Notes under the pieces: generated by a model
Seen by the model: the letters and a program-made list of their open reading frames with translations, nothing else
The model's database searches: none
What the model was told of the DNA's origin: nothing
DNA from: Deinococcaceae bacterium
GTDB taxonomy: Bacteria > Deinococcota > Deinococci > Deinococcales > Trueperaceae
Length of the DNA stretch: 50,250 nucleotides
Assembly (NCBI GenBank): GCA_040256005.1
Contig: JBDZWC010000005.1
Location: 1-50,250 of the forward strand
Reading direction: 5' to 3'
Position numbers and translations under genes: made by a program
Shown here: positions 2,421 to 47,819 of the stretch, one piece after another
Position numbering within the stretch: the stretch's first letter is position 1
Layout: every line of letters starts with the position of its first letter

Positions 2421-2491
2421 GGGTCCTCGCTCCTGGCCTCAGCCCGCATGTCCGCGGAGTCTAACGTGTGGCCTGGGCGTATCCTGGCCCC

Positions 2492-9123: not shown

Positions 9124-9187
9124 CCGGTGAGTCTAGCCCCGTGGCCATGTGCTACCTTCGCTCCAGACCAACCAAGGGAGGAAACGC

Positions 9188-10159
9188 ATGCGTACCGTAC
9201 TTCGGTCGTTCGGCGCAGTCGCCGCAATCGCTCTCGGCACCGCATTCGCTCAGGTCCCGCTCTCGATCGCCACCGGTGGGACCGGCGGCGTGTACTACCC
9301 GACCGGGGGCGGCTACGCCCAGGTGATCGATCAGTTCGTCGACGGCTACACCGCCACAGTGGAAGCGACGAACGCCTCCGTCGACAACGTGGCGTTCATC
9401 TCCCGCGGCGACGCCGACCTGGCGCTGGCGCTGGCCGACACCGTGCTGGCCGCGTACCAGGGCACCGGGGACTTCGGTGAAGGCGGCACGCTGCCGCAGC
9501 TTCCGAACCTGCGGGCCATCACGGTCGCCTACACCAACGCCGTTCATGTGATCACGCGCGCTGATTCCGGGATCGACAGCCTCCAGGACCTGGTCGGCAA
9601 GCGGGTCTCGGTCGGGGCGCCCGGCTCCGGCACCGAGGTCTCCGCTCAGACGATCCTGGAGGCCGTGGGGATCTCCTACGACGACTTCACGGTCCAGCGA
9701 CTGGGCGCCAACGAGACCGCCGACGCGCTGAGGGACGGCGCCATCGACGCGGGCTTCTGGTCCGGCGGCTTGCCCACCGGCGCGGTCATGAGCCTGGCCG
9801 AGACCCACGACATCAAGCTCGTGGCGATCAGCGACGACGAGTACGAGCTGATCCATGCGGCCGACCCGACCCTGATCCGCTACACCTTCCCGGCCGACAG
9901 CTACAGAGGGATCGAAGAGACCCCGTCGATCGGCACGCCGAACCTCTTGATCGTGGCGGCAGAGATGGACGAGGAGCTGGCGTACCAGTTCACCAAAGCG
10001 CTCTTCGAGCACATCGATGTCGTGCGCGCCATCCACCCGTCTGCGAACGAGACGGTTCCCGAGACCGCGCTGGACTCCCCCATCCCGTTGCACCCCGGCG
10101 CCATCCGCTACTACGAGGAGATCGGGCTCGAGGTGCCCGACCGACTCCGCGCCGACTAG
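9188..10159 (+). CDS. TAXI-family TRAP transporter solute-binding protein
   Basis: Signal peptide; IATGGTGGVYYP, VSVGAPGSGTE, IPLHPGAIRYYEE; RBS GGAGG before ATG 9188. Confidence 0.93.
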   Translation: MRTVLRSFGAVAAIALGTAFAQVPLSIATGGTGGVYYPTGGGYAQVIDQFVDGYTATVEATNASVDNVAFISRGDADLALALADTVLAAYQGTGDFGEGGTLPQLPNLRAITVAYTNAVHVITRADSGIDSLQDLVGKRVSVGAPGSGTEVSAQTILEAVGISYDDFTVQRLGANETADALRDGAIDAGFWSGGLPTGAVMSLAETHDIKLVAISDDEYELIHAADPTLIRYTFPADSYRGIEETPSIGTPNLLIVAAEMDEELAYQFTKALFEHIDVVRAIHPSANETVPETALDSPIPLHPGAIRYYEEIGLEVPDRLRAD

Positions 10160-10186
10160 CCTCGGGCAGTAAACAGGTACCTCGAG

Positions 10187-10705
10187 ATGCCGCCGCGCGC
10201 GCCTGGCAGGACGTCAACCGGGCGCGCGCGGCTCTGCGCGCTACTCGCCGCGGCGTGCCTGAGCCTGGGCACCTCCGCCTGGGCCCTCGCGGCAGGAGGA
10301 ACTGAGCCGTACCTGCAGGTGACGACGCGCGCCGGCGAGGTGCTGGTAGACGTCCCTCTGCCTGACTCCCTGACCTGGACCATCGAGTGGCGCCACTCGG
10401 TCGCGCAAGTGACCGTCCTCGACCGGTTCGCTTACAGGGACGGCGTCATGTACGTGACAGGGCAGGTGTCGCCGTACCTGGACATCGCCGGCTTGGGGGG
10501 CTACGCCGGGCGGGGCGAGATGACTCAGCTGCCCGACGGCAGGTACCAGCTCTCGGACCTGGACCTTCCGCTCTACGGGAACGTCCACAACTTCATCATC
10601 GGCACGGAGCGCGCTCCCACCGTCCTCGTCGTCGGGGACCAGCGCTTCGCGCTCACCCCAAACCATGCGGGTGAGCACGCCCGCATCGAGGTGATCTTCA
10701 GGTGA
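10187..10705 (+). CDS. DUF1850-like protein (TAXI-TRAP associated)
   Basis: WTIEWRHSV motif; position between TAXI SBP and fused permease. Confidence 0.7.
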   Translation: MPPRAPGRTSTGRARLCALLAAACLSLGTSAWALAAGGTEPYLQVTTRAGEVLVDVPLPDSLTWTIEWRHSVAQVTVLDRFAYRDGVMYVTGQVSPYLDIAGLGGYAGRGEMTQLPDGRYQLSDLDLPLYGNVHNFIIGTERAPTVLVVGDQRFALTPNHAGEHARIEVIFR

Positions 10706-12795
10706 CCGACGGAAGCCCGATCCCAGCGAACCCCGACGCTGTGGAACACCGCGGCGTGCCCATGCTGGCCTGGGTGGCGGTAGTGGTCACGGTCCTGGCC
10801 GTGGCGCTGGGAGCGTTCCAGCTGTACACGGCCGGTTTCCGCCCGTTCAACCTGTTCGTACAGCGCGGCTTCCACCTCATGGTCGTGCTGGTCATCACCT
10901 TCCTGGCGTTCCCGTTCAGGAAGCGCGAGCGACAGGCGCTCGACTGGGCGGTTGACGGGCTCTTCATCGCCGCGTCCGCCTACATCGGGTTGTACCTACT
11001 CATCGACCTCAACGGCATCATCGGCCGGTCCGGCTTCTTCATCCAGCGCGACATCGTGGCCGGCGTCATCGCGGTTCTGGTCGTGCTGGAGGCGGCCCGG
11101 CGCACGATCGGCTGGTCGATAACGCTCGTCGCCATCGTGGCGCTCCTCTACGCCATGGCCGGCCCGCGGGGCGCTCTGCCCTGGTTGGGCGAGCTGCTGC
11201 CCGGCATCCTGGCTCACCGCGGCTACTCTTTCGACCGCATCATCGGGCACCTCTACCTGGGCCAGGAGGGGATCCTCGGCCTGCCTCTCGGCGTGGCGGC
11301 CACGGTGGTGTTCACGTTCATCCTCTTCGGCGCCTTCCTCGAGTCGACCGGCGCCGGCAAGACGTTCATGGACATGGCCTACGCGGTGGCCGGCAGGCAG
11401 CGCGGCGGGCCGGCTAAGGCGGCGGTAGTCGCCTCCGGCTTCATGGGCTCGGTGTCAGGCAGCGCCATCGCGAACGTCGTGACGACCGGCGCGTTCTCGA
11501 TCCCGCTCATGAAGCGTCTCGGCTATCGCCCCGAAGAGGCGGGCGGCGTGGAGGCAGCGGCGTCCACGGGAGGACAGATCCTGCCGCCCGTGATGGGAGC
11601 GGGCGCCTTCCTGATGGCCGAGTACACCGGCGTGCCGTACGCGGAGATCGTGCGCATCTCGGTCCTGCCCGCGATCATGTACTTCGCCACGGTCTACCTC
11701 TTCGTGGACCTGATCGCCCTCAAGCGGGGCATGCGCGGCATCCCGCGGTCCGAGCTGCCGCGGGTGCGTGACGTGCTGCGGGAGGGCTGGTACTACCTGG
11801 TGCCGCTGGCGGTGCTCATCTACTTCCTGATGATCAACGTCTCGCCCAACCGTGTGGGCTTCATCGCGATCGTCACGATCCTGGGGGTCGCGGCGCTGCG
11901 CTGGGCGGTGCGGCGCTTCTGGCTCAGACCGGCACCCGCGCGCAGCCAAGGCGGTGCTGTGCTCGCGCCCGCTATGCAAGAGCAGACGGCTTCGCGGGAC
12001 GCGATCCTGGGCTTCCGCGGCTTCATCGACGCCTTCCGGGTCGGTGCCTTGAACGCCGTGCCGGTGAGCGTCGCCTGCGCGGTGGCGGGCATCGTGGTGG
12101 GCATCATCACGCTGACGGGCCTGGGCCTGAAGTTCTCCGCGCTCATGCTCGCCTTCTCCGGCGGGAACCTGCTCATCGCCATCGTGCTGATCATCCTCGC
12201 CAGCCTCGTGCTCGGCATGGGTCTGCCGGTGACGGCGAGCTACATCGTCCTGGCGGTGCTCGCCGCCCCATTGCTGCAGAACGAGTTCGGCATACCGCTT
12301 CTGATCGCCCACCTACTGATCTTCTGGTACTCGCAGGACTCCAACGTCACACCGCCAGTTGCCCTGGCGGCGTTCGCGGGCGCCGGCATCGCGAGGGCCG
12401 ATCCCATGCGGACGGCGTTCCAAGCTTGGAAGATGGCCAAGGGACTGTACTTGATCCCGCTGTTCATGGTGTACAACCCCGAGCTGATCTACGGCGGCGA
12501 GACCTGGTACTACCTCTGGACCATCCTCGTCGGGTTCGTCTCACTGGCCGCGTTCGCGGCGGCCTTGGAAGGCTACATGTTCACGCGCATGGCCTGGTAC
12601 TCGCGCGTTCTCGCGGGGGCAGGCCTGGTCCTGATCTTCTATCCGTCTTTCACCTACGAGGTGATCGGCATGGCCCTGATGCTCGTCGTTCTGGGGATCA
12701 ACCTGGTGCGGCGGCGCGCGCAGGTCAGGGCCGAGACGGTCGAAAGGGCCGAGACGGTCGAAAGGGCCGAACCTCCCGAGCCGGCCGCGACCTAG
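10702..12795 (+). CDS. TRAP transporter 4TM/12TM fused permease
   Basis: GGPAKAAVVAS, SGSAIANVVTTG, EAAASTGGQILPPVMGAGAFLMAE, TPPVALAAF; many TM segments. Confidence 0.94.
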   Translation: MTDGSPIPANPDAVEHRGVPMLAWVAVVVTVLAVALGAFQLYTAGFRPFNLFVQRGFHLMVVLVITFLAFPFRKRERQALDWAVDGLFIAASAYIGLYLLIDLNGIIGRSGFFIQRDIVAGVIAVLVVLEAARRTIGWSITLVAIVALLYAMAGPRGALPWLGELLPGILAHRGYSFDRIIGHLYLGQEGILGLPLGVAATVVFTFILFGAFLESTGAGKTFMDMAYAVAGRQRGGPAKAAVVASGFMGSVSGSAIANVVTTGAFSIPLMKRLGYRPEEAGGVEAAASTGGQILPPVMGAGAFLMAEYTGVPYAEIVRISVLPAIMYFATVYLFVDLIALKRGMRGIPRSELPRVRDVLREGWYYLVPLAVLIYFLMINVSPNRVGFIAIVTILGVAALRWAVRRFWLRPAPARSQGGAVLAPAMQEQTASRDAILGFRGFIDAFRVGALNAVPVSVACAVAGIVVGIITLTGLGLKFSALMLAFSGGNLLIAIVLIILASLVLGMGLPVTASYIVLAVLAAPLLQNEFGIPLLIAHLLIFWYSQDSNVTPPVALAAFAGAGIARADPMRTAFQAWKMAKGLYLIPLFMVYNPELIYGGETWYYLWTILVGFVSLAAFAAALEGYMFTRMAWYSRVLAGAGLVLIFYPSFTYEVIGMALMLVVLGINLVRRRAQVRAETVERAETVERAEPPEPAAT
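12727..12770 (+). repeat. 18-bp tandem repeat (~2.4 copies) encoding RAETVE at the TRAP permease C-terminus
   Basis: agggccgagacggtcgaa x2 + agggccga. Confidence 0.85.
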
Positions 12796-13916: not shown

Positions 13917-14912
13917 ATGTCGAAAGTACGTCGTCTCTTCTTCGCTGCCCTGATAGGTGTAGCGCTGACACCTCAGGCGTTCGCCCAGTCGGACGAGCTG
14001 CCCGTCGTCAACGCCGCCATGGAGGCAGTGGGCACCTTCTCCTGGATCGTCCACGCCATGGACTACTTCGGCACGGACACCGCGAACGGCATCGATGTCG
14101 TCGGCACCTCTTACGCCAGCAAACAAGCCACCGAGATCGCGCTGCGCAGCGGCGAAGCGGACGTCAAGGTGGACGACTTCCTGGCTCCGGTGCTGTTGCG
14201 CCAGGCCGGGATACAGGCGAGCGGCATCTACCCGTACGCCACGGCGGTGGGTGGCCTGATGGTCCCGGCGGACTCCGAGATCCAGGGGATACAGGACCTC
14301 GACGGCAAGACCATCGCCGCCGGGGCCCTGCGCGACAAGAGCATCCTGATCCTGCGCACGCTGACGATCTCCGAGTACGGGTTCGACGTGGGCGACAGCC
14401 AGGTGGTGCAAGCCGCCCCGCCGCTGATGATGGAGCTGACCGCCTCCGGCGAGGTGGACGCCTCACTGCCGTTGTGGCACTGGGTCGCCCGCATGGAGGC
14501 CGCCGGGGTGGCGCGCGAGATCATGAGCGTCGCGGACATGCTGGAGCAGCTCGGCCTGCCTCGCAACCTGCCGAACCTGGTGATCGTGGCGCGCGACGAC
14601 ATGCCAGACGAGCTCAAGACCGCGTTCATCGCCACGTTGCAGGACACGTTCGAGACCATGCTCGCCACACCGACTGACGACCCGTTCTGGCAGACGATCC
14701 TCGACGAGGAGCTCTACTCGCTGCCCGACCCCAGCCAGTTCCCCCAGGTCGTGGAGCGCTGGAAGGCCGGCACGACCGACGAGTGGAACCAGGAGACGAT
14801 AGACGGCCTCGTCGACATGGTCGAACGTCTGGTGGAGCTCGCTGGTCCCGAGGCGGTGGGCGTGGAGAGCATCGACCCGGCCGCATACACCACAGAGTTC
14901 CTGCCTCGCTGA
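13917..14912 (+). CDS. pqqT: ABC substrate-binding protein, SsuA/NMT1-like, PqqT-like (candidate PQQ-binding)
   Basis: Signal peptide; GTFSW, DTANG, PYATAVGGLMVP, DKSILIL, APPL, GEVDA..W..VARMEAAG match my recollection of Methylorubrum PqqT; adjacent to PQQ dehydrogenases. Confidence 0.7.
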   Translation: MSKVRRLFFAALIGVALTPQAFAQSDELPVVNAAMEAVGTFSWIVHAMDYFGTDTANGIDVVGTSYASKQATEIALRSGEADVKVDDFLAPVLLRQAGIQASGIYPYATAVGGLMVPADSEIQGIQDLDGKTIAAGALRDKSILILRTLTISEYGFDVGDSQVVQAAPPLMMELTASGEVDASLPLWHWVARMEAAGVAREIMSVADMLEQLGLPRNLPNLVIVARDDMPDELKTAFIATLQDTFETMLATPTDDPFWQTILDEELYSLPDPSQFPQVVERWKAGTTDEWNQETIDGLVDMVERLVELAGPEAVGVESIDPAAYTTEFLPR

Positions 14913-14926
14913 GGTAGCTTCAGCGC

Positions 14927-15753
14927 ATGGCGGTAGAGGCCCACGACACGTCTCGGTCCGCCATGCGCTCCGGTGCGAAGGTGCGGCGAGAGGGAGGCGT
15001 CGGCGTCGCCCTGACGTTCGTCTCCTACCTCTCGCTGCTCGTCCTGTGGATCGTCGCGGCGCGACTACTCCCCAACCTCATCCCCGGCCCCGTCGAGACC
15101 CTCGAGTTCGTCGCGCGCGAGTACCGGCGCGGGGTGCTGCTGGGCCATCTGTGGATCACCACGCAGAGGGTCATCGTCGCGTTCGTCGTCGCCATGGTGG
15201 CAGGGGTAGCGATCGGGGCGGCCATGGGCGCCTCGAAACGGGTCGACGACCTGCTGCAGGGCTGGCTCGTCGTGCTACTCACGATCCCCCGCATCCTGCT
15301 CTTCGTCGTGGCCTACCTGACGCTCGGGCTCTCGGACACGGCGCTCGTGGTGGCACTCATCGTCACGATCATCCCCACCATCGTCGTCGCGATCCGCGAG
15401 GGCGCGAAGGCGATCGATCTTGCCCTGGTGGACATGGCGCGCGCCTTCCGCCGCTCCCGCACGGCCATCTGGCGGCACGTGGTGTTCCCGCAACTGCTCC
15501 CCTACGTCCTCGGCACCGCGCGCGGAGCGTTGGCGCTCTCGTGGAAGATGGTCGTGCTGGGTGAGCTTCTCGGCCGCACGTCCGGCGTGGGCTACCAGAT
15601 CTCCTTCTACTTCCAGTTCTTCAACATGACAGGCATCCTGGCCTACGGCGTGACGATGATGGTCCTCCTGGCCGTGGTCGACCTCGGTCTCATGGGCTGG
15701 CTCCAGCGCGCGGCGTTCAGATGGCGGGCCCCCGCCAGAACCAACGCGCTCGG

Positions 15754-15757
<4 letters not shown>
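14927..15757 (+). CDS. ABC permease, NitT/TauT family
   Basis: Multiple TMs; EAA-like loop DMARAF...HVVFPQLLP; WKMVVLGELLG..SGVG. Confidence 0.9.
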
Positions 15758-16539
<782 letters not shown>

Positions 16540-16699: not shown

Positions 16700-17509
16700 G
16701 TGTCACCACGTACCAAGTCGCTGCGAAGGTTCGCTCAACTAGCCCTGGTAGTGACGATGGCGGTGTTCGCCTTCGCGAGCAGCAGTAGCTCGGACCTTTC
16801 GCTCCGCGAAGATGCCGATCTGGGCCAGATACTCGTCGATGGAGAAGGCAACACCGTGTACATCTTCCTGCCCGACGCTCAGGGGGACAGTACTTGCTAC
16901 GACGCCTGCGCACTGAACTGGCCGCCGGTGGCGGCCTCTGCCGAGCCGAGCGTCGGCGAGGGCCTCGACGCTGAACTGGTTGGCGCCGTCACGCGCACCG
17001 ACGGCATCGAGCAGCTCACCTACGGCGGTTGGCCCCTCTACACGTTCGTCCGCGACACCGAGCCCGGCCAAGCCAACGGTCAGGGCGCCAACGACGTCTG
17101 GTTCGTGCTCGACGTCCAGGGGATGGGCGTAGGGGTGCCGGAGACCGAGGAGGGTAGCGAGGAAGCCGAGGCTGACGACGCTGCCGACGGCGCCGAAGAG
17201 CCGGCCGGCGACCTCATGGCCGCCTACATGAAGGAAGGCGCTGCCGTCTTCGCGCGCATCTGCGCGGCCTGCCACGGCGCCAACGGCGACGAGTCCTTGG
17301 CCTCGCACGTAGCGATCCTCGCGAACAACTCTCGTCTACAGAACGGGCGCATGGTGGCGCACCGCGTCATCAACGGCGGCACCTACATGCCCTCTTTCGG
17401 CGACGTGCTCAGCGACCGCGAGGTCGCGGCGGTCGCCACGTTCGTGCGTAACTCGTTCGGCAACGAGTACGGGCTCGTTGGGGAGGAGGAGGCTGCGGCA
17501 TTGCGTTAG
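16700..17509 (+). CDS. Secreted COG4315 (Lipoprotein_15 repeat) domain + class I cytochrome c fusion (copy A)
   Basis: GGAGG RBS then GTG 16700; signal peptide; GNTVYIFLPD..STCYDACALNWPP and TYGGWPLYTFVRD repeats; acidic linker; CAACH and MPSF heme ligands. Confidence 0.82.
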   Translation: MSPRTKSLRRFAQLALVVTMAVFAFASSSSSDLSLREDADLGQILVDGEGNTVYIFLPDAQGDSTCYDACALNWPPVAASAEPSVGEGLDAELVGAVTRTDGIEQLTYGGWPLYTFVRDTEPGQANGQGANDVWFVLDVQGMGVGVPETEEGSEEAEADDAADGAEEPAGDLMAAYMKEGAAVFARICAACHGANGDESLASHVAILANNSRLQNGRMVAHRVINGGTYMPSFGDVLSDREVAAVATFVRNSFGNEYGLVGEEEAAALR

Positions 17510-17597
17510 GACGAGGTCAGTTCACTTGGTACCGACGGCTACGAACACTGATACGGGAGAGATAGGCTTCGAGCCTCACTACTTAGGAGAACGATTG

Positions 17598-19355
17598 ATG
17601 AAGTCCAACAGGCACTTCCGCGGCATGATCCTCGCTCTGGTGGCAGCGCTGGCCGGGATGGCCTTCGCCCAGACCGACGAGGACATGATCAACCCGCCGG
17701 CCGGCGAGTGGCCACAGTTCGGCCGCGACGCGACAGCCCACAGGTTCAGCCCCCTCGACCAGATCAACACCGAGAACGTGGCAGACCTGCAGCTGGCATG
17801 GGTCCGTGACCTCGGGTTCCGCCAGACGGTCCAGGGCACGCCTACGTTCTGGAACGGTCTCATGTACGTCTCCACGCAGACCGGCGTCATGGCGCTCGAT
17901 GGCACGAACGGCACCACCGTGTGGGAGTACAGCTCTCCCAACGAGGGTGAGGTCATCAGCGACTCGGCGCCTCGCGGCGGGCCGCTCGTCTACGACGGCA
18001 AGGTCTTCGCGAACCTGCGCTACGGCGCCACGGTGGCTCTCGACGCCGCCACGGGTGAGGAGATCTGGAAGGTCCAGGTCACCAACGAAGCGCTCAACGA
18101 GGGCTTCTCCACCAACCCCATCTGGGCCGACGGCAAGATCGTCACGGCTCCTACAGGCGCGGACTTCGGTGGCGCACCGGGCACCGTCCACGCTCTCAGC
18201 GCAGAGGACGGCGAGATCCTCTGGACGTTCAACATCGTCCCCACAGGGCCAGAAGACCCGGCGTGGGAGACCTGGAACAACCCACCCTCCTGGGAAGCGG
18301 GCATCGGTGGCGCCTCGGCATGGAACGCCGGCGCCTACGACCCAGAGTCCGGCATCATCGTGTGGGGCACCGGCCAGCCCACCCCGTGGGACCGCGTCGA
18401 CCCGCGCCGCGCCGACCCCGAGGGTGAGATCACCGACGACCTCTATACGGCGTCGTGGATCGCGCTCGACGCGGACACCGGCGAGCTCCAGTGGTACCGC
18501 CAGGCCGTGCCGGCCGACGAATGGGATTACGACCAGCACCAGGTGCCCACGTTCGCGACCGTCGATTGGAACGGCGAAGAACGGCGTGTGGCTATCATGG
18601 GCTCCTCGACCGGCTACATCTTCGTGGTCGACGCGAACACCGGCGAGTACCTGGCGAACCACCCGGCCTTCACCACTGTGACGGAGGGCGCCGAGTACAC
18701 GATCGTCCTGGGGTACGACGAGAACGGCCGCGGCATCATCAGCGATGAGGCGCGCCAGGCGAACCAGGACTTCGAAGAGACCTTCGAGTTCTACCCGATG
18801 TGCCCCGGCCTGCGCTGGGCCCACATCGCGCCGCCCGCTTACAGCCCGGAGACCGGCCTCTACTACCGTCCCAACAACACCGAGTGCCTCGACACCGGCG
18901 CCGCCACGCTCCCGGACGACTGGGAGCCTGGCCAGCGCGCTTGGTACAGCGAGAACGGCCCCGAGCGCCCCGAGCTGTGGTTCGACCGCGTCGGCGGACT
19001 GTCGGCGTTCGACCCGGTCACAGGTGAAGCCGTCTGGGAGTTCACCTACGACTACGGCTACGACGCAGGACCCGTGGCTACCGGCGGCGGACTGGTGTTC
19101 TCCGCCTTCACCGACCGCATGATCCGTGCCTTCGACGCTGCCACTGGTGAGGTGCTGTGGAGCCACATCCTCTCCACCGGCTCCAACGCCGGCACGATCA
19201 CGTACGAGGTAGACGGCGAGCAGTACGTCGCTGCGATGGTCGGCAAGACGTTCTACAGCTCGAACCCGTCGATCCCCGACTACAACCCCAACGTCGAGGG
19301 CCTCGTCGTGCCTCCCGCGGGCGGCGCCGCGATCTTCGTGTTCAAGCTGCCCTGA
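17598..19355 (+). CDS. PQQ-dependent beta-propeller dehydrogenase 1 (atypical active site)
   Basis: Signal peptide; RFSPLDQINTENVADLQLAW, W-docking repeats (ALDAATGEEIW, AFDAATGEVLW), DEWDYD, ITYEVDGEQYVA. Confidence 0.88.
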   Translation: MKSNRHFRGMILALVAALAGMAFAQTDEDMINPPAGEWPQFGRDATAHRFSPLDQINTENVADLQLAWVRDLGFRQTVQGTPTFWNGLMYVSTQTGVMALDGTNGTTVWEYSSPNEGEVISDSAPRGGPLVYDGKVFANLRYGATVALDAATGEEIWKVQVTNEALNEGFSTNPIWADGKIVTAPTGADFGGAPGTVHALSAEDGEILWTFNIVPTGPEDPAWETWNNPPSWEAGIGGASAWNAGAYDPESGIIVWGTGQPTPWDRVDPRRADPEGEITDDLYTASWIALDADTGELQWYRQAVPADEWDYDQHQVPTFATVDWNGEERRVAIMGSSTGYIFVVDANTGEYLANHPAFTTVTEGAEYTIVLGYDENGRGIISDEARQANQDFEETFEFYPMCPGLRWAHIAPPAYSPETGLYYRPNNTECLDTGAATLPDDWEPGQRAWYSENGPERPELWFDRVGGLSAFDPVTGEAVWEFTYDYGYDAGPVATGGGLVFSAFTDRMIRAFDAATGEVLWSHILSTGSNAGTITYEVDGEQYVAAMVGKTFYSSNPSIPDYNPNVEGLVVPPAGGAAIFVFKLP

Positions 19356-19392
19356 TCGCCGAGCGGGCCGAGCGCCTGCGCTGAAGCGAACA

Positions 19393-19433
19393 GAAGGGGA
19401 CCGGGAGTAAAGCCTCCCGGTCCCCTTCCCTTT
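19393..19433 (+). terminator. Intrinsic terminator or stabilising hairpin after dehydrogenase 1
   Basis: 15-bp perfect stem gaaggggaccgggag / ctcccggtccccttc, 6-nt loop, then ccttt. Confidence 0.8.
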
Positions 19434-19504
19434 GGTTGGCTTGCCCGGCTACCCTGCTTCATCGTCCCTGACGGCGGTAGCGTCTCAGCGGTAGAGTCGC
19501 GTGC

Positions 19505-21508
19505 ATGCAGCGTAGGCGTAGCGGAACGAAGCTGAAGACCGCATCACTCCTGCTCTTCCTCACCGCCCTTGTCGTCTCGCAACCCGCTCTCGCGCAGGAG
19601 CCGTGGGAGTTGGCGGTGTGTGCTCCCGTGGCGGCGTACCCTGCGGCCGATCGCGAACGCGGGGGTTACGACGTCGAGATCGCGCAGCTTCTCGCCGAGG
19701 AGCTCGGCGCCAGGACGTCCTTCACCTGGTTCACGTTCGACGACATCGGCATGCGGGACAACCTGCACGCCGGTCTTTGCGACGTAGCGGTGGGCGTGCC
19801 GGAGGGCATCGAGAACATGCTCACGACCGTCGCCTACCTCAAGGCGCCGTACGTGTTCGTCACGCGCACAGACAGCGGCATCACCATCGAGTCGTTGGAT
19901 GATCCGCAACTACGCGAGCTCAGGATCGGGACGTACCCCTTCTCACTGCCGTACATGGCGCTCGACAACCGCGGTATCTCGGACAACGTGACCGAGTACG
20001 CCTCCGTCATCAAGCCCACGGGCGCCGACACGCACAGCCCCATCCTCGACGCGGTCCTGGCCGGCGCGGTGGACGTCGGCATCGTCTACGGCCCCGCCGC
20101 CGCAGGGCGGGCCCTCGACGAGCCAGGGACGCTCACCCTTGTCCCCGTTACTCCCGAGGTCGACTTCGGTGCCACGCTGATCCAGCTCTCCAGGATCTTG
20201 ACCCTCGGCGTGAGGGCCCAGGACGAGGCGCTGCGGGACAGCCTGAACCGTGCCTTGGCCCGGCGTTGGGACGACGTCATGGCCATCCTCGACGAGTACG
20301 GTGTGCCCAGGGGCGATGTTCCAAGGCCCATCGACTCAGCCGAGCTCGCCGGAGCAACCCAGGTGGGCGTCATCGTGCCCGCCCGCACCCCAGCCTCCCT
20401 GCCCAACGCAACCGTGGGCGACGATGCCCTGCGCGGCGCTGCTGTCGCTGAGAACCGTGTGTCCGTCGGCGGCGGCTCCATTCCTTTCCAGGTCCTGATG
20501 GCGCACGCCCCTTCCCTCGAGTCTGCGCAGAGGGCCGCCGCTCGGCTCATGCAGGTCAACGGTGTCAAAGCGCTGATCGGAGGCTACGCCCCCGAGTTCG
20601 CCCGGGCCATCGCCACCGAGGCCGCGGCGAACGGCGTGCCCTACTTCAACGTGGGCTCCGAAGAGGACGACCTTCGTGACCCCACGTGCTACCCGACGAC
20701 GTTCCATGTGGCCCCCAGCACGGCGATGCTGGTCTCGGGCATGATCGCCGCGGCCGAGTCAGACGGCGGCGACAGCGTCTACGTCATCGGGGAGGAGGGC
20801 GTTCTGACCGACGGGCTGCTTCAGCTCATCACCCAACGTCTAGAGGAAGCAGGCGGTCAGTTGGTCGGCAGCGCTACCGTCAAGGCCGACGAGTTCGTGT
20901 ACTTCCCAGTTCTCCAGGCGGTCAGGGACTCCGGTGCTGACACCGTGTTGATGCTCATCAGCTCGGAGGGCCAAGAGCTACTGTTGAGCCAGGCGCCGGC
21001 CGTCGTGCCCGACGTTCAGCTGCTGGGCATAGCCACCGTCCGAGGGCAGAGCCGCCCATTCCTGCAGCGCTTCGCCCAGGTCAGCCCGGACGGTGTCACC
21101 AGTCCTCGCGTCACCGTCTGGGACCCTGCGGCCGATTCGACGGTCAACGACGTCTTCTCGTCGCGTACAGGCGAGCCCATGGAGCCTGCTGCCTGGACCA
21201 CGTACGCTGCCATCGTCACGGCGTTCCAAGCCGCGCAGGCAGGGGCCCTCGACGATCCGGGAACTCTCAAGTCGTTCCTGAGCGCACCCGATCCGGCGCT
21301 CGAGGTGGGCAAATCGGCACCTGTCTCGTTCCGGCCCTCGGACGGTCAGCTCGTGCAGGAGCTGTACGTCGTGCGGTCGGCCCCCGACGCCGCCTGGGGT
21401 AGGACCGCCGCGGCACGCACCGCTTTCGGCGAGGTCGTCTCGGTACTCCAGCCGTCCATCACGGCTGATATCTCGGTGGCTCCGGCCAACGCCTGCGAGG
21501 CACGCTGA
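19505..21508 (+). CDS. Fusion: XoxJ/MxaJ-like domain + LutA/PedA-type (Peripla_BP_6) binding domain (copy A)
   Basis: N-half LAVCAP..YP..GYDVEIAQLLAEELG..CDVAVGVP..TTVAYLKAPYVFVTR; C-half PYFNVGSEEDDLRDPTCYPTTFHVAPS..SFRPSDGQLVQELY. Confidence 0.82.
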   Translation: MQRRRSGTKLKTASLLLFLTALVVSQPALAQEPWELAVCAPVAAYPAADRERGGYDVEIAQLLAEELGARTSFTWFTFDDIGMRDNLHAGLCDVAVGVPEGIENMLTTVAYLKAPYVFVTRTDSGITIESLDDPQLRELRIGTYPFSLPYMALDNRGISDNVTEYASVIKPTGADTHSPILDAVLAGAVDVGIVYGPAAAGRALDEPGTLTLVPVTPEVDFGATLIQLSRILTLGVRAQDEALRDSLNRALARRWDDVMAILDEYGVPRGDVPRPIDSAELAGATQVGVIVPARTPASLPNATVGDDALRGAAVAENRVSVGGGSIPFQVLMAHAPSLESAQRAAARLMQVNGVKALIGGYAPEFARAIATEAAANGVPYFNVGSEEDDLRDPTCYPTTFHVAPSTAMLVSGMIAAAESDGGDSVYVIGEEGVLTDGLLQLITQRLEEAGGQLVGSATVKADEFVYFPVLQAVRDSGADTVLMLISSEGQELLLSQAPAVVPDVQLLGIATVRGQSRPFLQRFAQVSPDGVTSPRVTVWDPAADSTVNDVFSSRTGEPMEPAAWTTYAAIVTAFQAAQAGALDDPGTLKSFLSAPDPALEVGKSAPVSFRPSDGQLVQELYVVRSAPDAAWGRTAAARTAFGEVVSVLQPSITADISVAPANACEAR

Positions 21509-21516: not shown

Positions 21517-23253
21517 GTGCGCCGCGGCACGCTCTACACCAGTCTGCTGCTCGTCGCGCTGTGCTGCGGCGTCGCGGTCGGACAACCAGATACGTCTGAC
21601 CCGATGGCCGGCGATGTCGGCTGGCTGCAGTTCGGGGGGGACGCGACCGCGACCCGCTCGAGCCCGCTCACCCAGATCACCAGCGAGAACGTCGACAGGC
21701 TGAGGCTCGCGTGGGCGACGGAGCTCGGTTTCACGGGCAGGGTCCAAGGCTCGCCGGCTGCTTGGCAGGGGCGTCTCTTCGTCAGCACGGAGCATGGCGT
21801 GCTGGCGCTAGACGCCGTCAGCGGCGCTCAGCTCTGGTACTACACGGAGTCGGCTGGGCAGAGGACCAACACCGGCCTGCCCGTGCAGGCGCCACGCGGC
21901 AGCCCTGCGGTCGTGCCAGGGGACGCGGCGGGCGGCATCGTGGTAGCCAGCTTGCCCAACGCCCCAGCCGTGGTGGCCCTCGACGTGGACGACGGCAGCT
22001 TGGTGTGGCGGACGGACGTGGGCGATCCGGACTTCTCGGAATCGCTCCGGACCAACCCCTTGCTGGCCGGCGACATCCTCGTGGTGGGACCGACCGGCGC
22101 CGACCTCAGCCCGGTACCGGGCCGGTTGGTAGGTTTGCGGCTCGAGGATGGCGCGGTAGCTTGGACCTTCGACCTGGTGCCGGTCGACGAGGCGGACCCC
22201 GCGCGAGCGACCTGGTCGCCGTACCCTCCTGGAAGGCGGTTCGGGGTGGGCGGTGGCTCGGCCTGGAACTCGGGTGCCTACGACCCGGTAAGCGGGCTGG
22301 TCGTCTACGGAACTGGGCAGCCCTTCCCCTCTGATCGCCTAGACCCGCGCCGCGACGATGGCGCGGGCCCGGTCAGCGACGACCTATACACCGCCAGTTT
22401 CGTAGCACTGCACGCCCAGACAGGTGAGCTAGCCTGGTACCACCAGGTCGTGCCGGGCGATGAGTGGGGCTACGACCAGCACACGGTGCCCATCATCGCC
22501 GAGCTCCCCATAGGCGAACCGAACCGAAGGGTTGCGATCCTGGCCACCACGACCGGCTTCGTGCTCGTCGTGGACGTCGTCACGGGCGAACTGATCGCTG
22601 CCAACCGCATGGTGGACGTGACGACTGTCCATCTGGGTTACGACGCGGCGGGGGAGCCGGTGATCGCCGAGGACATGCGCAGGTCCTCGCCCGAGCAGGT
22701 GCTGCGGGTGTGTCCGGGCGCGCGCTGGGCCAGCATCGCCCCAGGCGCCTTCAGCCCGGCTACCGGGCTCCTCTACCGGCCCAACGACATCGCCTGTATC
22801 CGGCTGGGGGTCTCTGGCGCGCCAGACGGCTGGGAGCCGGGTGTGCGCCCGACCTGGCTACTGGCAGACGTACGGCAACCAGAAGACCTCTTCGATCGTT
22901 GGGGCGCCCTGACGGCACTGGATCCCGCATCGGGTGAAGTGGCGTGGACCTTCGAGACGCCCTACCCGCACGACGCGGGTGCGCTGGTGACTGCCGGTGG
23001 CCTGGTCTTCTCCGCGTTCGCGGACCGGGTCTTCAGAGCGTTCGACGCCCAGACAGGTGAGGTGCTCTGGAGTCAGGTGTTGACCGCGCACTCGGATGGG
23101 GCCCCCATCACTTACGCGGTCGACGGGGTTCAGTACGTCGCCGTCATGGCGGGCAGGGACACGGCGGTGCACAGCCTGCCGACGTCCGGCCTACCGGACT
23201 CCATCACCGGGCCAGCGACGCTGTACGTGTTCGCGCTCGACGGGCTGCCCTGA
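21517..23253 (+). CDS. PQQ beta-propeller protein 2, paralog of dehydrogenase 1, catalytic Asp replaced
   Basis: RSSPLTQITSENVDRLRLAW, GGGSAWNSGAYDP, DDLYTASFVAL, DEWGYD, PITYAVDGVQYVAV. Confidence 0.85.
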   Translation: MRRGTLYTSLLLVALCCGVAVGQPDTSDPMAGDVGWLQFGGDATATRSSPLTQITSENVDRLRLAWATELGFTGRVQGSPAAWQGRLFVSTEHGVLALDAVSGAQLWYYTESAGQRTNTGLPVQAPRGSPAVVPGDAAGGIVVASLPNAPAVVALDVDDGSLVWRTDVGDPDFSESLRTNPLLAGDILVVGPTGADLSPVPGRLVGLRLEDGAVAWTFDLVPVDEADPARATWSPYPPGRRFGVGGGSAWNSGAYDPVSGLVVYGTGQPFPSDRLDPRRDDGAGPVSDDLYTASFVALHAQTGELAWYHQVVPGDEWGYDQHTVPIIAELPIGEPNRRVAILATTTGFVLVVDVVTGELIAANRMVDVTTVHLGYDAAGEPVIAEDMRRSSPEQVLRVCPGARWASIAPGAFSPATGLLYRPNDIACIRLGVSGAPDGWEPGVRPTWLLADVRQPEDLFDRWGALTALDPASGEVAWTFETPYPHDAGALVTAGGLVFSAFADRVFRAFDAQTGEVLWSQVLTAHSDGAPITYAVDGVQYVAVMAGRDTAVHSLPTSGLPDSITGPATLYVFALDGLP

Positions 23254-26200
23254 TCGATCCGAAGAGCACGACGATCGCCCCGTAGCGCAGCGCGAGCGCA
23301 GTGATGAACGAGAGCAGGGCTAGCACGAACCAGGCGGCCGGTGAGCCTCCCCAGACGAGATGGGGTGTAACGGCCGGGAGGTCCACCGCTACTCCGACGC
23401 TACCGCCCGTGGCTACCGCCAGGTCCGCCAGCGCCACGCCTCTTGACTGAGAGTGCTCCGACGGCGGGAGGGGCCAGTTCACGGCACGCACCACCGGTTG
23501 GCTCAGGCCCTGTTCCGGCACGGGCAACACAGTGACGGCCAAGGTTCCTTCCCAGTCATCTGATACCGCGAACCTGGCCACCGCACTGCCCGCCCCGCGG
23601 GGCGTGAGTTGGCTTCGGTTGACGACCTTACCGTCGGCGCTCAGTTCGACCAGCGGCAGGTCCAGCCCGTCCATCTCGAGCGGTACGTCGACCAATACTT
23701 GCAGGTACCCGCTGCCACCCTCCGTCCTCACGCTCCAGACGTCGCGGATGGGCCGCTCCGCCGTCCAACGCAGCGCCTGTGCCCAGAGCCGGCCGTAGAA
23801 GTCGGTCCCTTCCCACTCCTCCGACCATGGGCCGTCGGCGGCAGACGCGAACGCCACCACTCGGCCCAGCCCGTAACGCCAGGACGCGATCAACGGGTCT
23901 CCATGTTCCTGCTCGACGAGGTGCACGCTGGCCTCGTCCTTGGCCGTAGTGCGCACGTAGCCGCGCAAGGCGGGAGGCGCGTTGCCAGCTACGTCCTCGA
24001 GGGACCCAGACCCCTCAGCGTCGACCCAGCTGGCCGACGTGGTGCGCTCCTCGATCGGCTCGGCCGCCAGCATCAGGGCCTCCTGGGCAAGCAGGCCGGG
24101 CAGGGACCTGAAGTCGCGCGCCATGTGCAGGGAGCCCCCGCTCAAGCCCGCCAGCTTGTTGAGCTGTCGTCCATCAGCGCCGTCGCCCACTCCGACGAAG
24201 CTCACCGAGACGCCCATCTCGCCCAGAGCCGTCAGCACACCTTCGAAGTCGCCTTCTTGCGACAGGCCGTCCGTCATGACGACGACGTGCCTCGTGGCCG
24301 ACTCGTTCTCGCTTAGCAACCCGAACGCCGCCACAAGGCCCGGGTAGATCGCGGTACCGCCGGCGGCGCCGACGCCGGCGAGTGCGTCCCGGAACACCTG
24401 AGCTTCCACGACGGGCGTGAAAGGCAACACCACCTGTGCGCTGGTGTCGAAGACGACTATCGCGGCCAGGCTCTGCTCGCCGAGCAGCGCCAGGGCCTCG
24501 ACGGTTGCCGCCTTGGCCACGTCCATGCGCGTAGCGTCTCCCACGGGTCCGCTCATGCTGCCCGACCTGTCGAGCACGAACGTGATCGACACCTCGGGAG
24601 CATCCTCGCTGATGCGCGCCGACAGCGGCGACACCGACTCCAGCGGGGTGGTGTAGTACCCACCGGGTCCGAACGCCGAAGGGCCGCCGAAGATCGTCAG
24701 CCCGCCGCCCCACTCGCGCACGTACGCCTCCAGGGCGGCCTGGTACTCAGGGAACAGTTCGTTCGCAGAGACGTTCACTAGTAGCACCGCGTCGAAGACC
24801 GCCAAGTCCTCGGCTTCGCCGGGCATGCGGAACGGAGTGGTCCGCGTTACGTCCACCCTCTGGGTCCGCAACGCGGCTTCGAGTGCCGAGCCCTGGTGCT
24901 CGTCGGCTGCCACCAACAACGCGGAGACGGGAGGGCCTACGGCGACGGTGATGAGGCCGTCGTAGGTGGGGTCGGCTGCGCCCAGGGGCGTGAGCGTGAG
25001 CCGGTAGGTCGGATCCCCCGGGGGGCCAGCCGTCAGCTCCAGCGAGGCCGAGGACGGTCCACTGCCCCTTACCTCCACCCCGACGATCCGGTCGCCGGCA
25101 GCCTCCTCCCCGGGAGCGGTCGGCTCGAGTCGGGCGGTCCAACCCGTTTCGGTAGGCGCTTCGACCCGGATGTCGACGGAGAACTGGGCCCCCGATCTGA
25201 CGCGCTCGGGCCAAGTGACGGCGGTGACCGACAGGCGGTCGCCTGCGCGTTGCAGAGCGGGCGGAACGTCAGTCTCGACGACATGTAGCGACGTGGTCAC
25301 CGCTCGGGTCCGACGCCAAAGGTTAGAGGCGCTACCTACCTCGACCGGCATAGAGGGATCTAGTTCGACTATGACGGCGTCATCGCCCGGCGCTGGTGGC
25401 ATCGCGAGGGCCACCTCCAGCGCCAGCGCCGCGTCCGGTGTCGAGAGGTCGTCGCCTGGCCCTCGGCCCTGTGTGACGTTCGGCCCTTCGACCACCGCGA
25501 TCCGCGACCAAGTGCGTCCGGGGTTCTCCGTTCGAACGCGGGCGAAAGCTGTGTTGGAGGACGCCGGCCCCACCCACGTAGCACTGCCACCGGAGCGCGC
25601 GACCGGTACCCGAACACCGAGGACCCCTGATCCCAGCAGCGCCACCGCCGCGAGCAGGAAAGCGCCCTGGCGGCGCGACCGAGTCAGAGCCACCTCCTTG
25701 CGTGCCACAGCCAGGCCCGCTTCTACGAAGATCAGCAGCAGCGCCACGACGGCTGCCCAGCGCCAAGCTGGCAGGGCCGTAGGCGGAGGCGCCGCGGCGG
25801 GGACATCGCCGCTGGGCCTCCCCGCCTCGACAGGTGCGCTCACCACGGGCAGCTGTACGTCGCCCCCGGGTGACCGAAGCCGGTAGACGCCGCTGAGTTC
25901 GGGCCTGAAGCCATCGTCGAACCAGTCCTGGTCCCAGACCGCGTCCGCCAGTGGATCGCTGGGTACCGCGCGCGGCAACACGGGCGCCGCGATCTCGTCC
26001 CCTGCGGGGCTCACGAGTACCCAGTCCCCTGCGAAGGCCTCACGCGGCCACGGGCAAGATCGGGAGGTCCTGCAGCCGCTCGGTTGGTGAGACCACGCGC
26101 GCGGCGCCGCCCAGGCCACGACCTCCGCGACGAAAGCCGGGAAGCTCAGTTGCGACTGCCAGGCGCTGGACACGGGGTCGACCCCCACTACGATCTGCCT

Positions 26201-27559
26201 GCCGACCGTGGTCGTACGAGCCCAGGCCAGCACCTTGTCGCCCGAACTGAGCAGTGGCGTGGCACCTTCCAATGCGACGACCGGCTGGGCGCGACCGGCG
26301 ACCAACACCCCTGGTTCCAGGTCGCGTACGAGGACGTGAGCACCGGCACTAAGCGGGCGTCCTGCCAGCTCCACCGCCTCTCCGTCTCGAACCGCTTCCG
26401 GCACCGCCCCCAGCCAGAGGGTCGATGTCTGCGGTACACCAGGGAGGTCGTCCGTAACGATCGCGAGGTCGAAGAGGCGTGCTTGTTGGGGCGCTGGCAC
26501 GGCGGGCGCGGCATACACCTCCAAGTCCCCCACCGCTGCCAGCGCCCTCAGCAGAGCGTGGGGAGCCTCGCCCACCACGACCACGCGCACGGGCTCGGGC
26601 CGCAGCGGCACGACGACGCTGTCGTCGGCCGGTGCTTGGTCGCCGGTGGGGCCGTCGAGCCTCAGTTCTCCCGGGCCGGGCAGGTCGAGCGGCATCTCGA
26701 ACACAGCAGTGCCGTCAGCCGCCAGCACCACGTCGGTCCCGCCCCATGGCAGGAACGTGTCCGTGCCCGTTGACCGGTACGAGGCCATCACCCTGATCAC
26801 ATCGCCGCGCTCCAAGCCCGACGTCGTGACGGTGCCCGACACGTCCCACCGGTCAGGCCGGTCCCCACGCACCGTGGCATGAACGTCTCTGATGCCGACG
26901 TTCACCAGGTCGCCGCCAAGGGTCAAGTAGCTGACCCTGTCGGCGAGCCCAACCTCGGTCAGCGCCGACCGTGCCGCCTCGACCCCCTGGCCATCCGTGT
27001 AGACGACCACCCGGCCGTCTTCTCCTGCCAGGAGCTCAGCGCGTATGGCCGCGCCCCGCCAGTCCTCACGAGCTTCTCCGGCGGTGATGGCCGAGGTGAC
27101 ACGCGTGAGGTCGGGGCCGGCCGGCCAGCGCGCCGCCAGCACGGTCGCGGGTGCGCCCGCTCGGACGACGGAGACGGTTGCCTCGGTGTCCTTACGAGCG
27201 AACCGAGCCTCGATGTCAGAGATGGCGGCCGAGAGGCGATCGGGCGAAACGTCTCTGGATGACATCGCCACCGACGTGTCCACCAGCACGACCCAGTCCG
27301 TCGGACCGCTACCGTATCCAACCACAGGCCGTGCCAGGGCGAGCACCACGAAGGTCAGCGCCAGGGCCTGCAACCACAGCAGCGGGTCACGCCAAGGAAC
27401 GGACCTGACGCTGGGCGCGTTCAGTCCGTCGGCTGCGACCCGGCGCCAGATGAGCAGGTTCGGCACGACGACGTCGCGCCTGCGTCGGGCATGCAACAGG
27501 ACGAGCGCGGGCAAGAGCACCGGCAGCAGCCAGAGCCAAGCGCCGTGAACGAAGCTCAC
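23204..27559 (-). CDS. Large membrane VWA protein (BatA N-terminus, VWA, GATase1/DUF1355-like, VWA), ~1451 aa
   Basis: GTG 27559 overlaps the DUF58 stop; BatA-type PLLWLQALAL..ALARP; DTSVAM; GGGLTIFGGPSAFGPGGY; MIDAS DRSGSM..GGT..MTDG. Confidence 0.82.
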   Translation of the reverse strand: MSFVHGAWLWLLPVLLPALVLLHARRRRDVVVPNLLIWRRVAADGLNAPSVRSVPWRDPLLWLQALALTFVVLALARPVVGYGSGPTDWVVLVDTSVAMSSRDVSPDRLSAAISDIEARFARKDTEATVSVVRAGAPATVLAARWPAGPDLTRVTSAITAGEAREDWRGAAIRAELLAGEDGRVVVYTDGQGVEAARSALTEVGLADRVSYLTLGGDLVNVGIRDVHATVRGDRPDRWDVSGTVTTSGLERGDVIRVMASYRSTGTDTFLPWGGTDVVLAADGTAVFEMPLDLPGPGELRLDGPTGDQAPADDSVVVPLRPEPVRVVVVGEAPHALLRALAAVGDLEVYAAPAVPAPQQARLFDLAIVTDDLPGVPQTSTLWLGAVPEAVRDGEAVELAGRPLSAGAHVLVRDLEPGVLVAGRAQPVVALEGATPLLSSGDKVLAWARTTTVGRQIVVGVDPVSSAWQSQLSFPAFVAEVVAWAAPRAWSHQPSGCRTSRSCPWPREAFAGDWVLVSPAGDEIAAPVLPRAVPSDPLADAVWDQDWFDDGFRPELSGVYRLRSPGGDVQLPVVSAPVEAGRPSGDVPAAAPPPTALPAWRWAAVVALLLIFVEAGLAVARKEVALTRSRRQGAFLLAAVALLGSGVLGVRVPVARSGGSATWVGPASSNTAFARVRTENPGRTWSRIAVVEGPNVTQGRGPGDDLSTPDAALALEVALAMPPAPGDDAVIVELDPSMPVEVGSASNLWRRTRAVTTSLHVVETDVPPALQRAGDRLSVTAVTWPERVRSGAQFSVDIRVEAPTETGWTARLEPTAPGEEAAGDRIVGVEVRGSGPSSASLELTAGPPGDPTYRLTLTPLGAADPTYDGLITVAVGPPVSALLVAADEHQGSALEAALRTQRVDVTRTTPFRMPGEAEDLAVFDAVLLVNVSANELFPEYQAALEAYVREWGGGLTIFGGPSAFGPGGYYTTPLESVSPLSARISEDAPEVSITFVLDRSGSMSGPVGDATRMDVAKAATVEALALLGEQSLAAIVVFDTSAQVVLPFTPVVEAQVFRDALAGVGAAGGTAIYPGLVAAFGLLSENESATRHVVVMTDGLSQEGDFEGVLTALGEMGVSVSFVGVGDGADGRQLNKLAGLSGGSLHMARDFRSLPGLLAQEALMLAAEPIEERTTSASWVDAEGSGSLEDVAGNAPPALRGYVRTTAKDEASVHLVEQEHGDPLIASWRYGLGRVVAFASAADGPWSEEWEGTDFYGRLWAQALRWTAERPIRDVWSVRTEGGSGYLQVLVDVPLEMDGLDLPLVELSADGKVVNRSQLTPRGAGSAVARFAVSDDWEGTLAVTVLPVPEQGLSQPVVRAVNWPLPPSEHSQSRGVALADLAVATGGSVGVAVDLPAVTPHLVWGGSPAAWFVLALLSFITALALRYGAIVVLFGSIRAARRARTRTASLAR

Positions 27560-29462: not shown

Positions 29463-29484
29463 CTCACCTCGCGGGTAGGGCCGC

Positions 29485-33113: not shown

Positions 33114-33135
33114 CGGGGCCGATGCCTCGTGGCCG

Positions 33136-35157: not shown

Positions 35158-35257
35158 CTTCCCTCCTACCTGCTTCCGCTGGGCCCGGCGCGCTCCCCTG
35201 CTCCCGCGGCGAAACCGTCTCGAACCTGGTCGAGCGGCGGGGAACGGCGGCTGGTCC

Positions 35258-38229: not shown

Positions 38230-38254
38230 CAGCCAGACGTTACCTTAGGGGCGC

Positions 38255-47802: not shown

Positions 47803-47819
47803 CGGCACCTCCTACAGCC

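Follow-up and report, generated by a model that had tools for sequence, protein, structure and literature searches.

The window, i.e., the whole stretch of 50,250 nucleotides that was analysed (positions 1-50,250 of contig JBDZWC010000005.1 from a Deinococcaceae bacterium; all coordinates are on that scale), contains a gene, called DH1 below, whose product is predicted to be a secreted dehydrogenase of the pyrroloquinoline quinone (PQQ) type. It is followed by its paralog DH2; the coordinates of these and of the neighbouring features are collected in Table 1. The product of DH1 begins with a signal-peptide-like stretch and belongs to the superfamily by its PF01011 score (218 bits, Pfam cut-off 26.7). 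In the PDB it matches 26 distinct solved PQQ dehydrogenase sequences (E 2e-62 to 4e-32), and its AlphaFold2 model (124-sequence alignment, mean pLDDT 95.1) displays propeller-type strand repeats and one N-terminal helix. A search of the ESM Atlas with DH1 returned nothing beyond general PQQ dehydrogenase clusters.

Residues were mapped by HMMER alignments to the solved QH-ADH and PedH chains, and the mapping was checked on an L-INS-i alignment with XoxF5, the third dehydrogenase of the window (DH3), the sorbose dehydrogenase (SDH) of K. vulgare and E. coli Gcd; no mapping error was found. The XoxF numbering (Glu55, Arg110, Ser169, Glu172, Trp238, Asn256, Asp299, Asp301, Arg326, Asp388) is that of PMC13573614.

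DH1 possesses the PQQ-contact Arg (R126), the stacking Trp (W242) and the catalytic Asp (D310) of the family, and the usual PQQ-contact positions are filled by R126, T186, W242, Q79 and H409. It departs from the canonical site at five places: (i) I120/S121 (17955-17960, within SDSAPRG) stand at the site of the expected vicinal Cys-Cys, in the HMMER as well as in the L-INS-i alignments; (ii) Q79 stands at the Glu55 position (HEG changed to VQG); (iii) D189 replaces the metal Glu (GADFG); (iv) Q260 replaces the metal Asn (GTGQP); (v) S337 occupies the position of the Arg or Lys located beside the quinone (XoxF Arg326, DepA Lys349), RNG being changed to STG. These replacements had been read by eye in the initial annotation and are upheld by the mapping, as is the retention of WDYD (W309-D312) at exactly 18522-18533. 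The codons of Q79, R126, D189, W242, Q260 and S337 start at 17832, 17973, 18162, 18321, 18375 and 18606, respectively. By alignment, the predicted metal site is D189/Q260/D310/D312, i.e., three Asp and one Gln.

These features were compared on a set of 172 proteins of at least 500 amino acids (aa), obtained from two homolog searches (the first contributing the best 120 of 748 matches) and four of the nearest 50%-cluster representatives, shorter fragments being dropped. The clade of DH1 consists of 171 of them, P0125 being the nearest outside row. Its support is 100/100 on a 51-row IQ-TREE tree (LG+G4; 11 clade rows), and a 177-row FastTree and a 57-row quick tree concur. At 99/99 the clade is grouped with a Gemmatimonadota-type branch without characterised members and with a Ketogulonicigenium plasmid protein closely related to the sorbose dehydrogenase 4MH1 (927 bits). 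It stands apart from XoxF5, E. coli Gcd and the members of TIGR04528, and DH1 is located inside none of the characterised clades placed on the tree, a statement that excludes MxaF, SldA and lupanine hydroxylase, for which there are no named rows. MxaF chains are the lowest-scoring dehydrogenases in the PDB comparisons with DH1. It must be noticed that some tree labels, namely «PedH-like», «QH-ADH-like» and two of the XoxF labels (out of three), were assigned from motifs.

In the contig search, 11 of at least 77 loci reach at least 43% identity, all of them in metagenome-assembled genomes, and the next stands at 34% among the matches listed; the record titles of the 11 name eight Trueperaceae, two Deinococcaceae and one uncultured bacterium. 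In the family of the window, a clade match above 400 bits is found in 18 of 128 genomes, and any PQQ dehydrogenase in 48. On these sequences, the clade appears as a separate branch of PQQ dehydrogenases, occurring in uncultured Trueperaceae.

Two changes separate the clade from the other dehydrogenases. A basic residue (Arg or Lys) around position 337, within 334-340, is present in 0/171 clade proteins vs. 156/158 outside rows, while R406 is found in 169/171 vs. 1/158. A second clade-specific Arg, R424 (99%), is probably buried, as its register suggests. R406 aligns with DepA Leu406 and with the residue after 412 in PedH (6ZCV), whose position 412 lines the cavity. DepA Leu406 is placed in the substrate cradle by docking (PMC12566506). 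The loss at 337 and the gain of R406 represent one evolutionary event, which gives no statistical weight to a link between them. The most distinctive change (RNG to STG) is the one least weighted in the initial annotation, which overlooked Arg406 and also the fact that DH2 no longer has the catalytic Asp.

No vicinal Cys pair is present in the loop in any of the 172 rows, and the extra Asp of the D-x-D motif associated with lanthanides, D312, is present in 170/171 clade proteins. Outside the DH2 subclade, R126, W242, D312 and R406 are each found in 114/114 proteins, D189 and D310 each in 113/114.

The changes of the metal Glu to Asp and of the metal Asn to Gln had been proposed to be a reciprocal, compensatory swap. 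Of 177 rows, 135 have D/E and N/Q at the two positions: E+N 59, D+Q 38, D+N 37 and E+Q 1, most D+Q rows being the DH1 clade itself. Asp is thus about as frequent with Asn as with Gln. The tree requires no fewer than 14 switches of E/D and no fewer than 9 of N/Q. Of 12 independent pairs with different E/D states, an average of 11.6 have the same residue at N/Q, while none of the 6 pairs with different N/Q states differs at E/D. The changes being uncoupled, the reciprocal swap is rejected; since only E+Q is avoided, a one-way constraint is retained, i.e., Gln seems to require the shorter Asp while Asp does not require Gln.

Most of the changes are not new, that of Glu to Asp being common. Cys-Cys is missing from each of the chains 4MH1, 22VI, 4CVB, 7WMD and 9M2C, the first two of which also carry Gln at the Glu55 position. 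E. coli Gcd also lacks Cys-Cys, with D354/N355 at the metal-Glu site and D466-M-D468. Gln79 can be regarded as a conservative change, since Glu55 of XoxF, as well as Asp388, is modelled as protonated (PMC13573614). Within the sequences compared, the novel features are the absence of Arg/Lys and R406; the predicted 3-Asp+Gln site also sets the clade apart. The clade is a variant of the known PQQ family and not a new class; the proposal of a new quinoprotein class was overstated, since solved SDH/DepA-type chains have lost Cys-Cys as well, and some show the same Gln in the place of Glu55.

The nearest characterised lineage is that of SDH and DepA (4MH1, 22VI, 4CVB, 7WMD/7WMK, 9M2C), soluble periplasmic PQQ propellers without Cys-Cys, among which DepA is enzymatically active (PMC12566506); the identity with the K. 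vulgare plasmid SDH is 28%. At the metal-Glu position this lineage has Gln and the clade Asp; the Asn position bears no amide in the former and Gln in the latter; D-x-E stands against D-x-D; and the Lys of the lineage (CKTG) is missing from the clade, in which Arg takes the place of DepA Leu406. DH1 does not belong to that lineage: within the 99/99 group the two form separate 100/100 branches. With XoxF, ExaF and PedH (4MAE, 6OC6, 6ZCV) the clade shares D-x-D, the PQQ Arg, the stacking Trp, a XoxJ-like cassette and PedA1A2BC-like neighbours; however, two Asp, Glu and Asn are replaced by three Asp and Gln, and both the disulfide and Arg326 are absent. DH1 was rejected as a XoxF/PedH (TIGR03075 342.5 bits, cut-off 480.05; separate tree branch). 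Gcd, the membrane-bound glucose/quinate dehydrogenase, resembles it in lacking Cys-Cys, in Asp354/Asn355 and in D-x-D, but retains Lys493, has an N-terminal membrane domain and is distant on the tree; this assignment fails also by TIGR03074 (152.1 vs. 832.65) and by the 585 aa with a single N-terminal helix.

Two uncharacterised groups share some of the features. The acido-empty-quinoprotein group A (TIGR04528), the name of which refers to hosts without PQQ synthesis, is Cys-less with an Asp near the metal site, but retains Asn and RNG; DH1 scores 278.4 (cut-off 650) and is separate on the tree. A Gemmatimonadota/Pseudohongiella branch (L012, L013, L057, P0129; 33-37% identity) is Cys-less and has the same metal pair (G-D and G-Q-P), but differs by Lys at 337, Arg at 79 and the lack of the R-W motif. 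In an Asp+Gln branch represented by L013, L057, P0134 and P0203, the second Asp of D-x-D is deleted (one residue, WD-RAA), and Arg stands at the Glu55 position.

The DH1 gene looks functional, as had been supposed: it is under purifying selection, with a ratio of nonsynonymous to synonymous substitutions (dN/dS) of 0.07-0.30 in three comparisons (simple counting, at high GC and partial saturation), and the cassette cytochrome c-dehydrogenase-MxaJ-like gene is conserved. Contigs from other sequencing runs span 18204-19460 and 18526-18827 with zero differences, and contigs of two RNA libraries of one study, in which DNA may be present, match DH1 without differences; as these are contigs, they give no ranking of expression, and the gaps of the RNA libraries over DH2 and the VWA genes carry no meaning. 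DH1 has its own ribosome-binding site and a strong downstream hairpin (z = -4.6; equal folding in 0/200 shuffles), both pointed out beforehand. In 7/10 relatives the 100 nucleotides past the dehydrogenase stop codon also give z of -3.4 or lower (vs. simple shuffles); the hairpin would be terminator-like or mRNA-stabilising.

Table 1. Features of the window around DH1, with the basis of each assignment.
Feature	Position	Strand	Description and basis
PqqT-like periplasmic PQQ-binding protein (predicted)	13917-14912	+	PDB matches only to 9B1U/9B1V and 9OOZ (E 4e-22)
ABC permease and ATPase	14927-16539	+	ATPase: TauB/SsuB-like models, all below cut-off; permease by sequence reading
Cytochrome c	16700-17509	+	Lipoprotein_15 repeats and CxxCH domain; start inferred (longest open reading frame from 16427)
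Ribosome-binding site AGGAG	17585-17589	+	Sequence; 8 nucleotides before the ATG of DH1
DH1	17598-19355	+	585 aa, secreted 8-bladed PQQ-type dehydrogenase; PF01011, PDB matches, AlphaFold2, residue tables
Hairpin of 15 pairs between DH1 and MxaJ-like gene	19393-19428	+	Folding vs. shuffles
MxaJ/XoxJ-like domain fused to periplasmic binding domain	19505-21508	+	TIGR03871, 166.8 bits (cut-off 212)
DH2	21517-23253	+	Paralog of DH1 (47% identical); Gly replacing the catalytic Asp; R126, D189, Q260, D312, R406 present
VWA, DUF58-like, MoxR-like AAA+ ATPase, 500-aa protein	23204-30987	-	VWA by Pfam; MoxR and DUF58 by motif recognition
Canonical cassette: MxaJ-like, DH3, cytochrome c	31119-36193	-	DH3 at 33136-35157, with E/CC/E/N/D-x-D/R
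PedA1A2BC-like ABC system and acidic protein	36455-41743	-	Binding protein, beta-propeller, ATPase, permease; TIGR03863, TIGR03866, TIGR03864, TIGR03861, all below cut-off
OmpR-type response regulator and histidine kinase	41961-43621	+	Divergent from the PedA-like operon; arrangement shared by L005, L155, L156

The cytochrome gene noticed next to DH1 in the initial annotation is a CxxCH cytochrome c directly upstream. In 10/10 DH1-type loci (L001-L008, L010, L011) the clade gene has a cytochrome c directly upstream and a MxaJ-like gene directly downstream. This cytochrome c is likely the electron acceptor of DH1, and the MxaJ-like protein, by analogy, likely a PQQ-loading chaperone: MxaJ loads PQQ into MxaF, while MxaR/S/A/C/K/L insert Ca2+ (PMC12276312). 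The genome has three canonical dehydrogenases, each enclosed in the same type of cassette; DH3, one of them, passes TIGR03075 (500 vs. 480 bits). On the tree these three D-x-D enzymes (33136-35157, reverse strand; contig C109, 24282-26063 and 31850-33619) are neighbours of XoxF in a separate 100/100 branch, and they possibly represent a XoxF-like type of the Deinococcota. The C-terminus of DH3 is extended by a long acidic Gly/Ala tail.

In the PQQ cassettes, the cytochromes (16700-17509, forward; 35258-36193, reverse; contig C109) consist of Lipoprotein_15 (PF03640) repeats fused to a C-terminal cytochrome c. In the MxaJ/XoxJ-like proteins (19505-21508, forward; 31119-33290, reverse) the fused domain is a Peripla_BP_6 domain resembling the PedA1-like protein, and a single polypeptide may thus serve both to load PQQ and to deliver the metal.

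The VWA/DUF58/MoxR group resembles the metal-insertion helpers MxaC/L, MxaS and MxaR, although the MoxR-like and DUF58-like proteins have no NCBIfam match at 1e-25. In 9 of the 11 loci L001-L011 it adjoins the clade gene, and PQQ dehydrogenases of other kinds in the family have it nearby as well; it was rejected as a clade-specific partner, a DUF58-like gene being present in 54/128 family genomes, near other dehydrogenase types. The 500-aa protein of the group (29485-30987, reverse) has no family match and is recurrently found upstream of the MoxR-like gene in such clusters. In the PedA1A2BC-like operon, an acidic 367-aa secreted protein (38255-39358, reverse) keeps its position, with 28-42% identity, in L005, L009, L010, L152, L155 and L156. 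It has no Pfam or NCBIfam match, its nearest ESM Atlas cluster has no name, and it is a candidate lanthanide-binding protein.

Elsewhere in the window, sequence reading recognises an L-2-hydroxyglutarate oxidase-like gene (2468-3700, forward), a CaiB CoA-transferase (7894-9123, reverse) and a TAXI-type TRAP transporter (9149-12795, forward), three genes hinting at organic-acid use nearby. As clues to the substrate, the transporter and the CoA-transferase are restricted to close kin (3/11 loci) and were not used. Also recognised are the end of a ClpB-like or DnaK-like gene (1-800) and, at 43634-50250, glycoside hydrolases together with an ABC transporter for sugars.

The supply of the cofactors was followed across the family. 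In the own genome (96.8% complete), profile searches gave no pqqC or pqqE match, and the same pqqC model exceeds its cut-off in 5/128 family genomes, including 1/18 clade genomes. The PqqT-like protein has the D-K motif of PqqT, with K142 as the PQQ-binding Lys; 9B1U is PqqT itself (PMC11331073). Its gene is found in 44/48 family genomes with a PQQ dehydrogenase, 7/80 without and 16/18 clade genomes. The lack of pqqC and pqqE matches and the PqqT-like protein fit PQQ scavenging as in PMC12124388.

As for the metal, PedA1A2BC is the lanthanide transporter of P. putida (PMC12997753), and the gene for its PedA2-like beta-propeller is present in 17/18 clade genomes, 13/30 genomes with other dehydrogenases only and 2/80 without any. 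Five genomes of five genera hold clade dehydrogenases only, as a TIGR03075 search confirms, and all have the PedA2-like gene, which shares a contig with the clade gene in G100, G044 and G062 but not in G116 and G055. They also carry the PqqT-like binder, cytochrome c, MxaJ-like protein and PedA1A2BC-like transporter described for the cluster. Their completeness is 97, 95, 89, 89 and 79%. Some genomes have many PQQ-propeller matches (G002 41, G003 30, G004 22, G005 13); expansions of such genes are reported in 10.1101/2023.07.25.550467.

The reading that we favour, to which we give about an even chance as a whole, is that DH1 represents an active, lanthanide-using secreted dehydrogenase with a rewired active site, belonging to a Trueperaceae clade. 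Its parts are not equally secure: DH1 very probably binds PQQ and is in good likelihood catalytically active; a lanthanide as its metal, rather than Ca, is somewhat favoured; an anionic substrate is proposed tentatively, against the balance. The cell would make no PQQ, which would be captured by the PqqT-like protein and loaded by the MxaJ-like protein into DH1 at the R126, T186, W242, Q79 and H409 positions. The metal, probably Ln3+, would be held by PQQ together with D189, Q260, D310 and D312; D310 would deprotonate the substrate hydroxyl, hydride passing to C5 of PQQ, and electrons would reach the neighbouring cytochrome c without a vicinal disulfide. R406, on a loop lining the cavity in DepA and PedH, would either replace the charge lost at 337 or bind an anionic substrate. 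Compared with methanol or ethanol, a larger and more polar substrate is probable, i.e., a polyol, sugar or hydroxy acid.

An extended version, which we regard as unlikely, adds that the layout (three Asp and Gln, with the cation moved from the RNG loop to Arg406) would be new, that the substrates would form a class so far unconnected with rare earths, such as hydroxy or sugar acids, that DH2 would be a dedicated pseudo-dehydrogenase binding PQQ and lanthanide as a store, sensor or partner subunit and that both cofactors would be scavenged by these Deinococcota.

The sharing of the metal-site changes by DH2 had been noted at the outset. D189, Q260 and the lost Arg are common to both, while DH2 has W-G-Y-D and its catalytic Asp is gone. 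In its subclade of 57 members, position 310 is Glu in 22, Gly in 16, Ser in 11, Ala in 7 and Asp in 1, whereas R126 (57/57), D312 (56), D189 (55), R406 (55) and Q260 (53) are retained. W264 is lost, and H528 (56/57), W450 (55/57) and W465 (54/57) are fixed in this subclade. The dN/dS of DH2 is 0.10-0.22 in four comparisons, subject to the same counting, GC and saturation as above; purifying selection without the catalytic Asp implies a selected function independent of the usual base. DH2 may be a cofactor-binding pseudo-enzyme. That it is instead a second enzyme, one relying on a different base or a different chemistry (Glu310 or the invariant His528), is a real possibility, if the lesser one: the frequent Glu, the residues fixed or lost in the subclade and the low dN/dS speak for it, but Gly, Ser or Ala interchange freely at 310 in 34/57 members, and DH2 has no cytochrome gene of its own, standing behind DH1 in 5/5 loci where both are visible. 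One member, P0127, retains hardly any of the site residues (His at 189, Val at 242, WSYGQ) and looks like a further decayed or repurposed copy.

In XoxF and ExaF the second Asp is a tested lanthanide ligand, essential for La3+ (10.1101/2020.02.25.964783), and a modelling study puts a 3-Asp+Asn site in its lanthanide tier (10.64898/2026.07.14.738520). In the clade, D312 is the most conserved acidic ligand and the PedA-like transporter travels with the clade. Several points weigh against the lanthanide-using enzyme: (i) D-x-D is not diagnostic, being present in E. coli Gcd, a Ca/Mg enzyme; (ii) none of the four PedA1A2BC-like genes reaches its curated cut-off, and two of them, for the ATPase and the permease, fit the DrrA/DrrB models with higher scores; (iii) every solved or characterised relative inspected has Arg or Lys at 337; (iv) the positions of R406, D189 and Q260 are those given by the alignments; (v) three of the five clade-only genomes are less than 90% complete, and counts over related genomes are non-independent; (vi) DepA uses Ca2+ (PMC11331073); (vii) genes resembling the MxaR/S/C/L helpers flank the clade, and such helpers serve Ca2+ insertion and are said to be needless for XoxF (PMC12276312).

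DH1 could thus be an active Ca2+ (or Mg2+) enzyme like DepA and Gcd, in which the MoxR/VWA proteins insert the metal and the PedA-like transporter is otherwise employed. We hold this doubtful, although it is the strongest competitor for DH1. The nearest characterised lineage includes DepA, with Ca2+ and a Gln ligand (PMC11331073), Gcd has D-x-D, and look-alikes of the Ca2+-inserting Mxa proteins accompany most clade loci. Moreover, the shorter Asp may miss the metal, 2-Asp+Asn sites being modelled as Ca-preferring (10.64898/2026.07.14.738520). On the other side, D312 is kept more strictly than the catalytic Asp, PedA-like genes are retained where a canonical lanthanide enzyme was not found, and MoxR/DUF58-like genes occur near other dehydrogenase types as well.

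It is rather improbable that the whole clade is non-catalytic, DH1 and DH2 binding PQQ and/or lanthanide for storage or sensing, an idea suggested by the loss of the quinone-activating Arg/Lys. This loss is complete in the clade, one subclade tolerates the loss of the catalytic Asp, and the same genome has three canonical dehydrogenases. However, D310 is retained in all non-DH2 proteins but one and lost in 56/57 of the DH2 subclade, which is the pattern of an enzyme with a non-catalytic paralog; a dedicated cytochrome c accompanies DH1 in every locus of its type, and five genomes have no other such dehydrogenase. That DH1 is a duplicate in decay or an artefact of assembly is hardly credible, nothing having been found in its favour, its signature being common to 171 relatives, its dN/dS well below 1 and the independent contigs identical.

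In a literature search judged mostly by titles and the start of abstracts, no Trueperaceae PQQ dehydrogenase, 3-Asp+Gln site or such pseudo-quinoprotein was found, nor a report of lanthanide or PQQ scavenging in Deinococcota. Three preprints bear on the subject. In 10.64898/2026.07.14.738520, 3D-1N, 3D-1E and 2D-1N are non-canonical sites, and «Gln» does not occur in the main text. In 10.1101/2023.07.25.550467, most sorbose/glucose dehydrogenase homologs are putative lanthanide enzymes and 24% of 6,886 sequences have neither motif, so that divergent sites are common. In 10.64898/2026.07.10.737718, 15 clades are described and Deinococcota is absent from the main text. Their trees or supplements might include the DH1 clade.

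A single motif now serves to predict lanthanide dependence in thousands of PQQ enzymes, the tests being confined to few lineages with canonical sites. The clade offers a clean test of this motif where Glu, Asn, disulfide and Arg are all changed, as well as of the need for Arg/Lys. A natural comparison is offered by DH1, which has the catalytic Asp, and DH2, which lacks it. If the favoured reading is true, the scavenging of lanthanide and PQQ would reach into Deinococcota, and these enzymes would be candidates for new oxidation chemistry.

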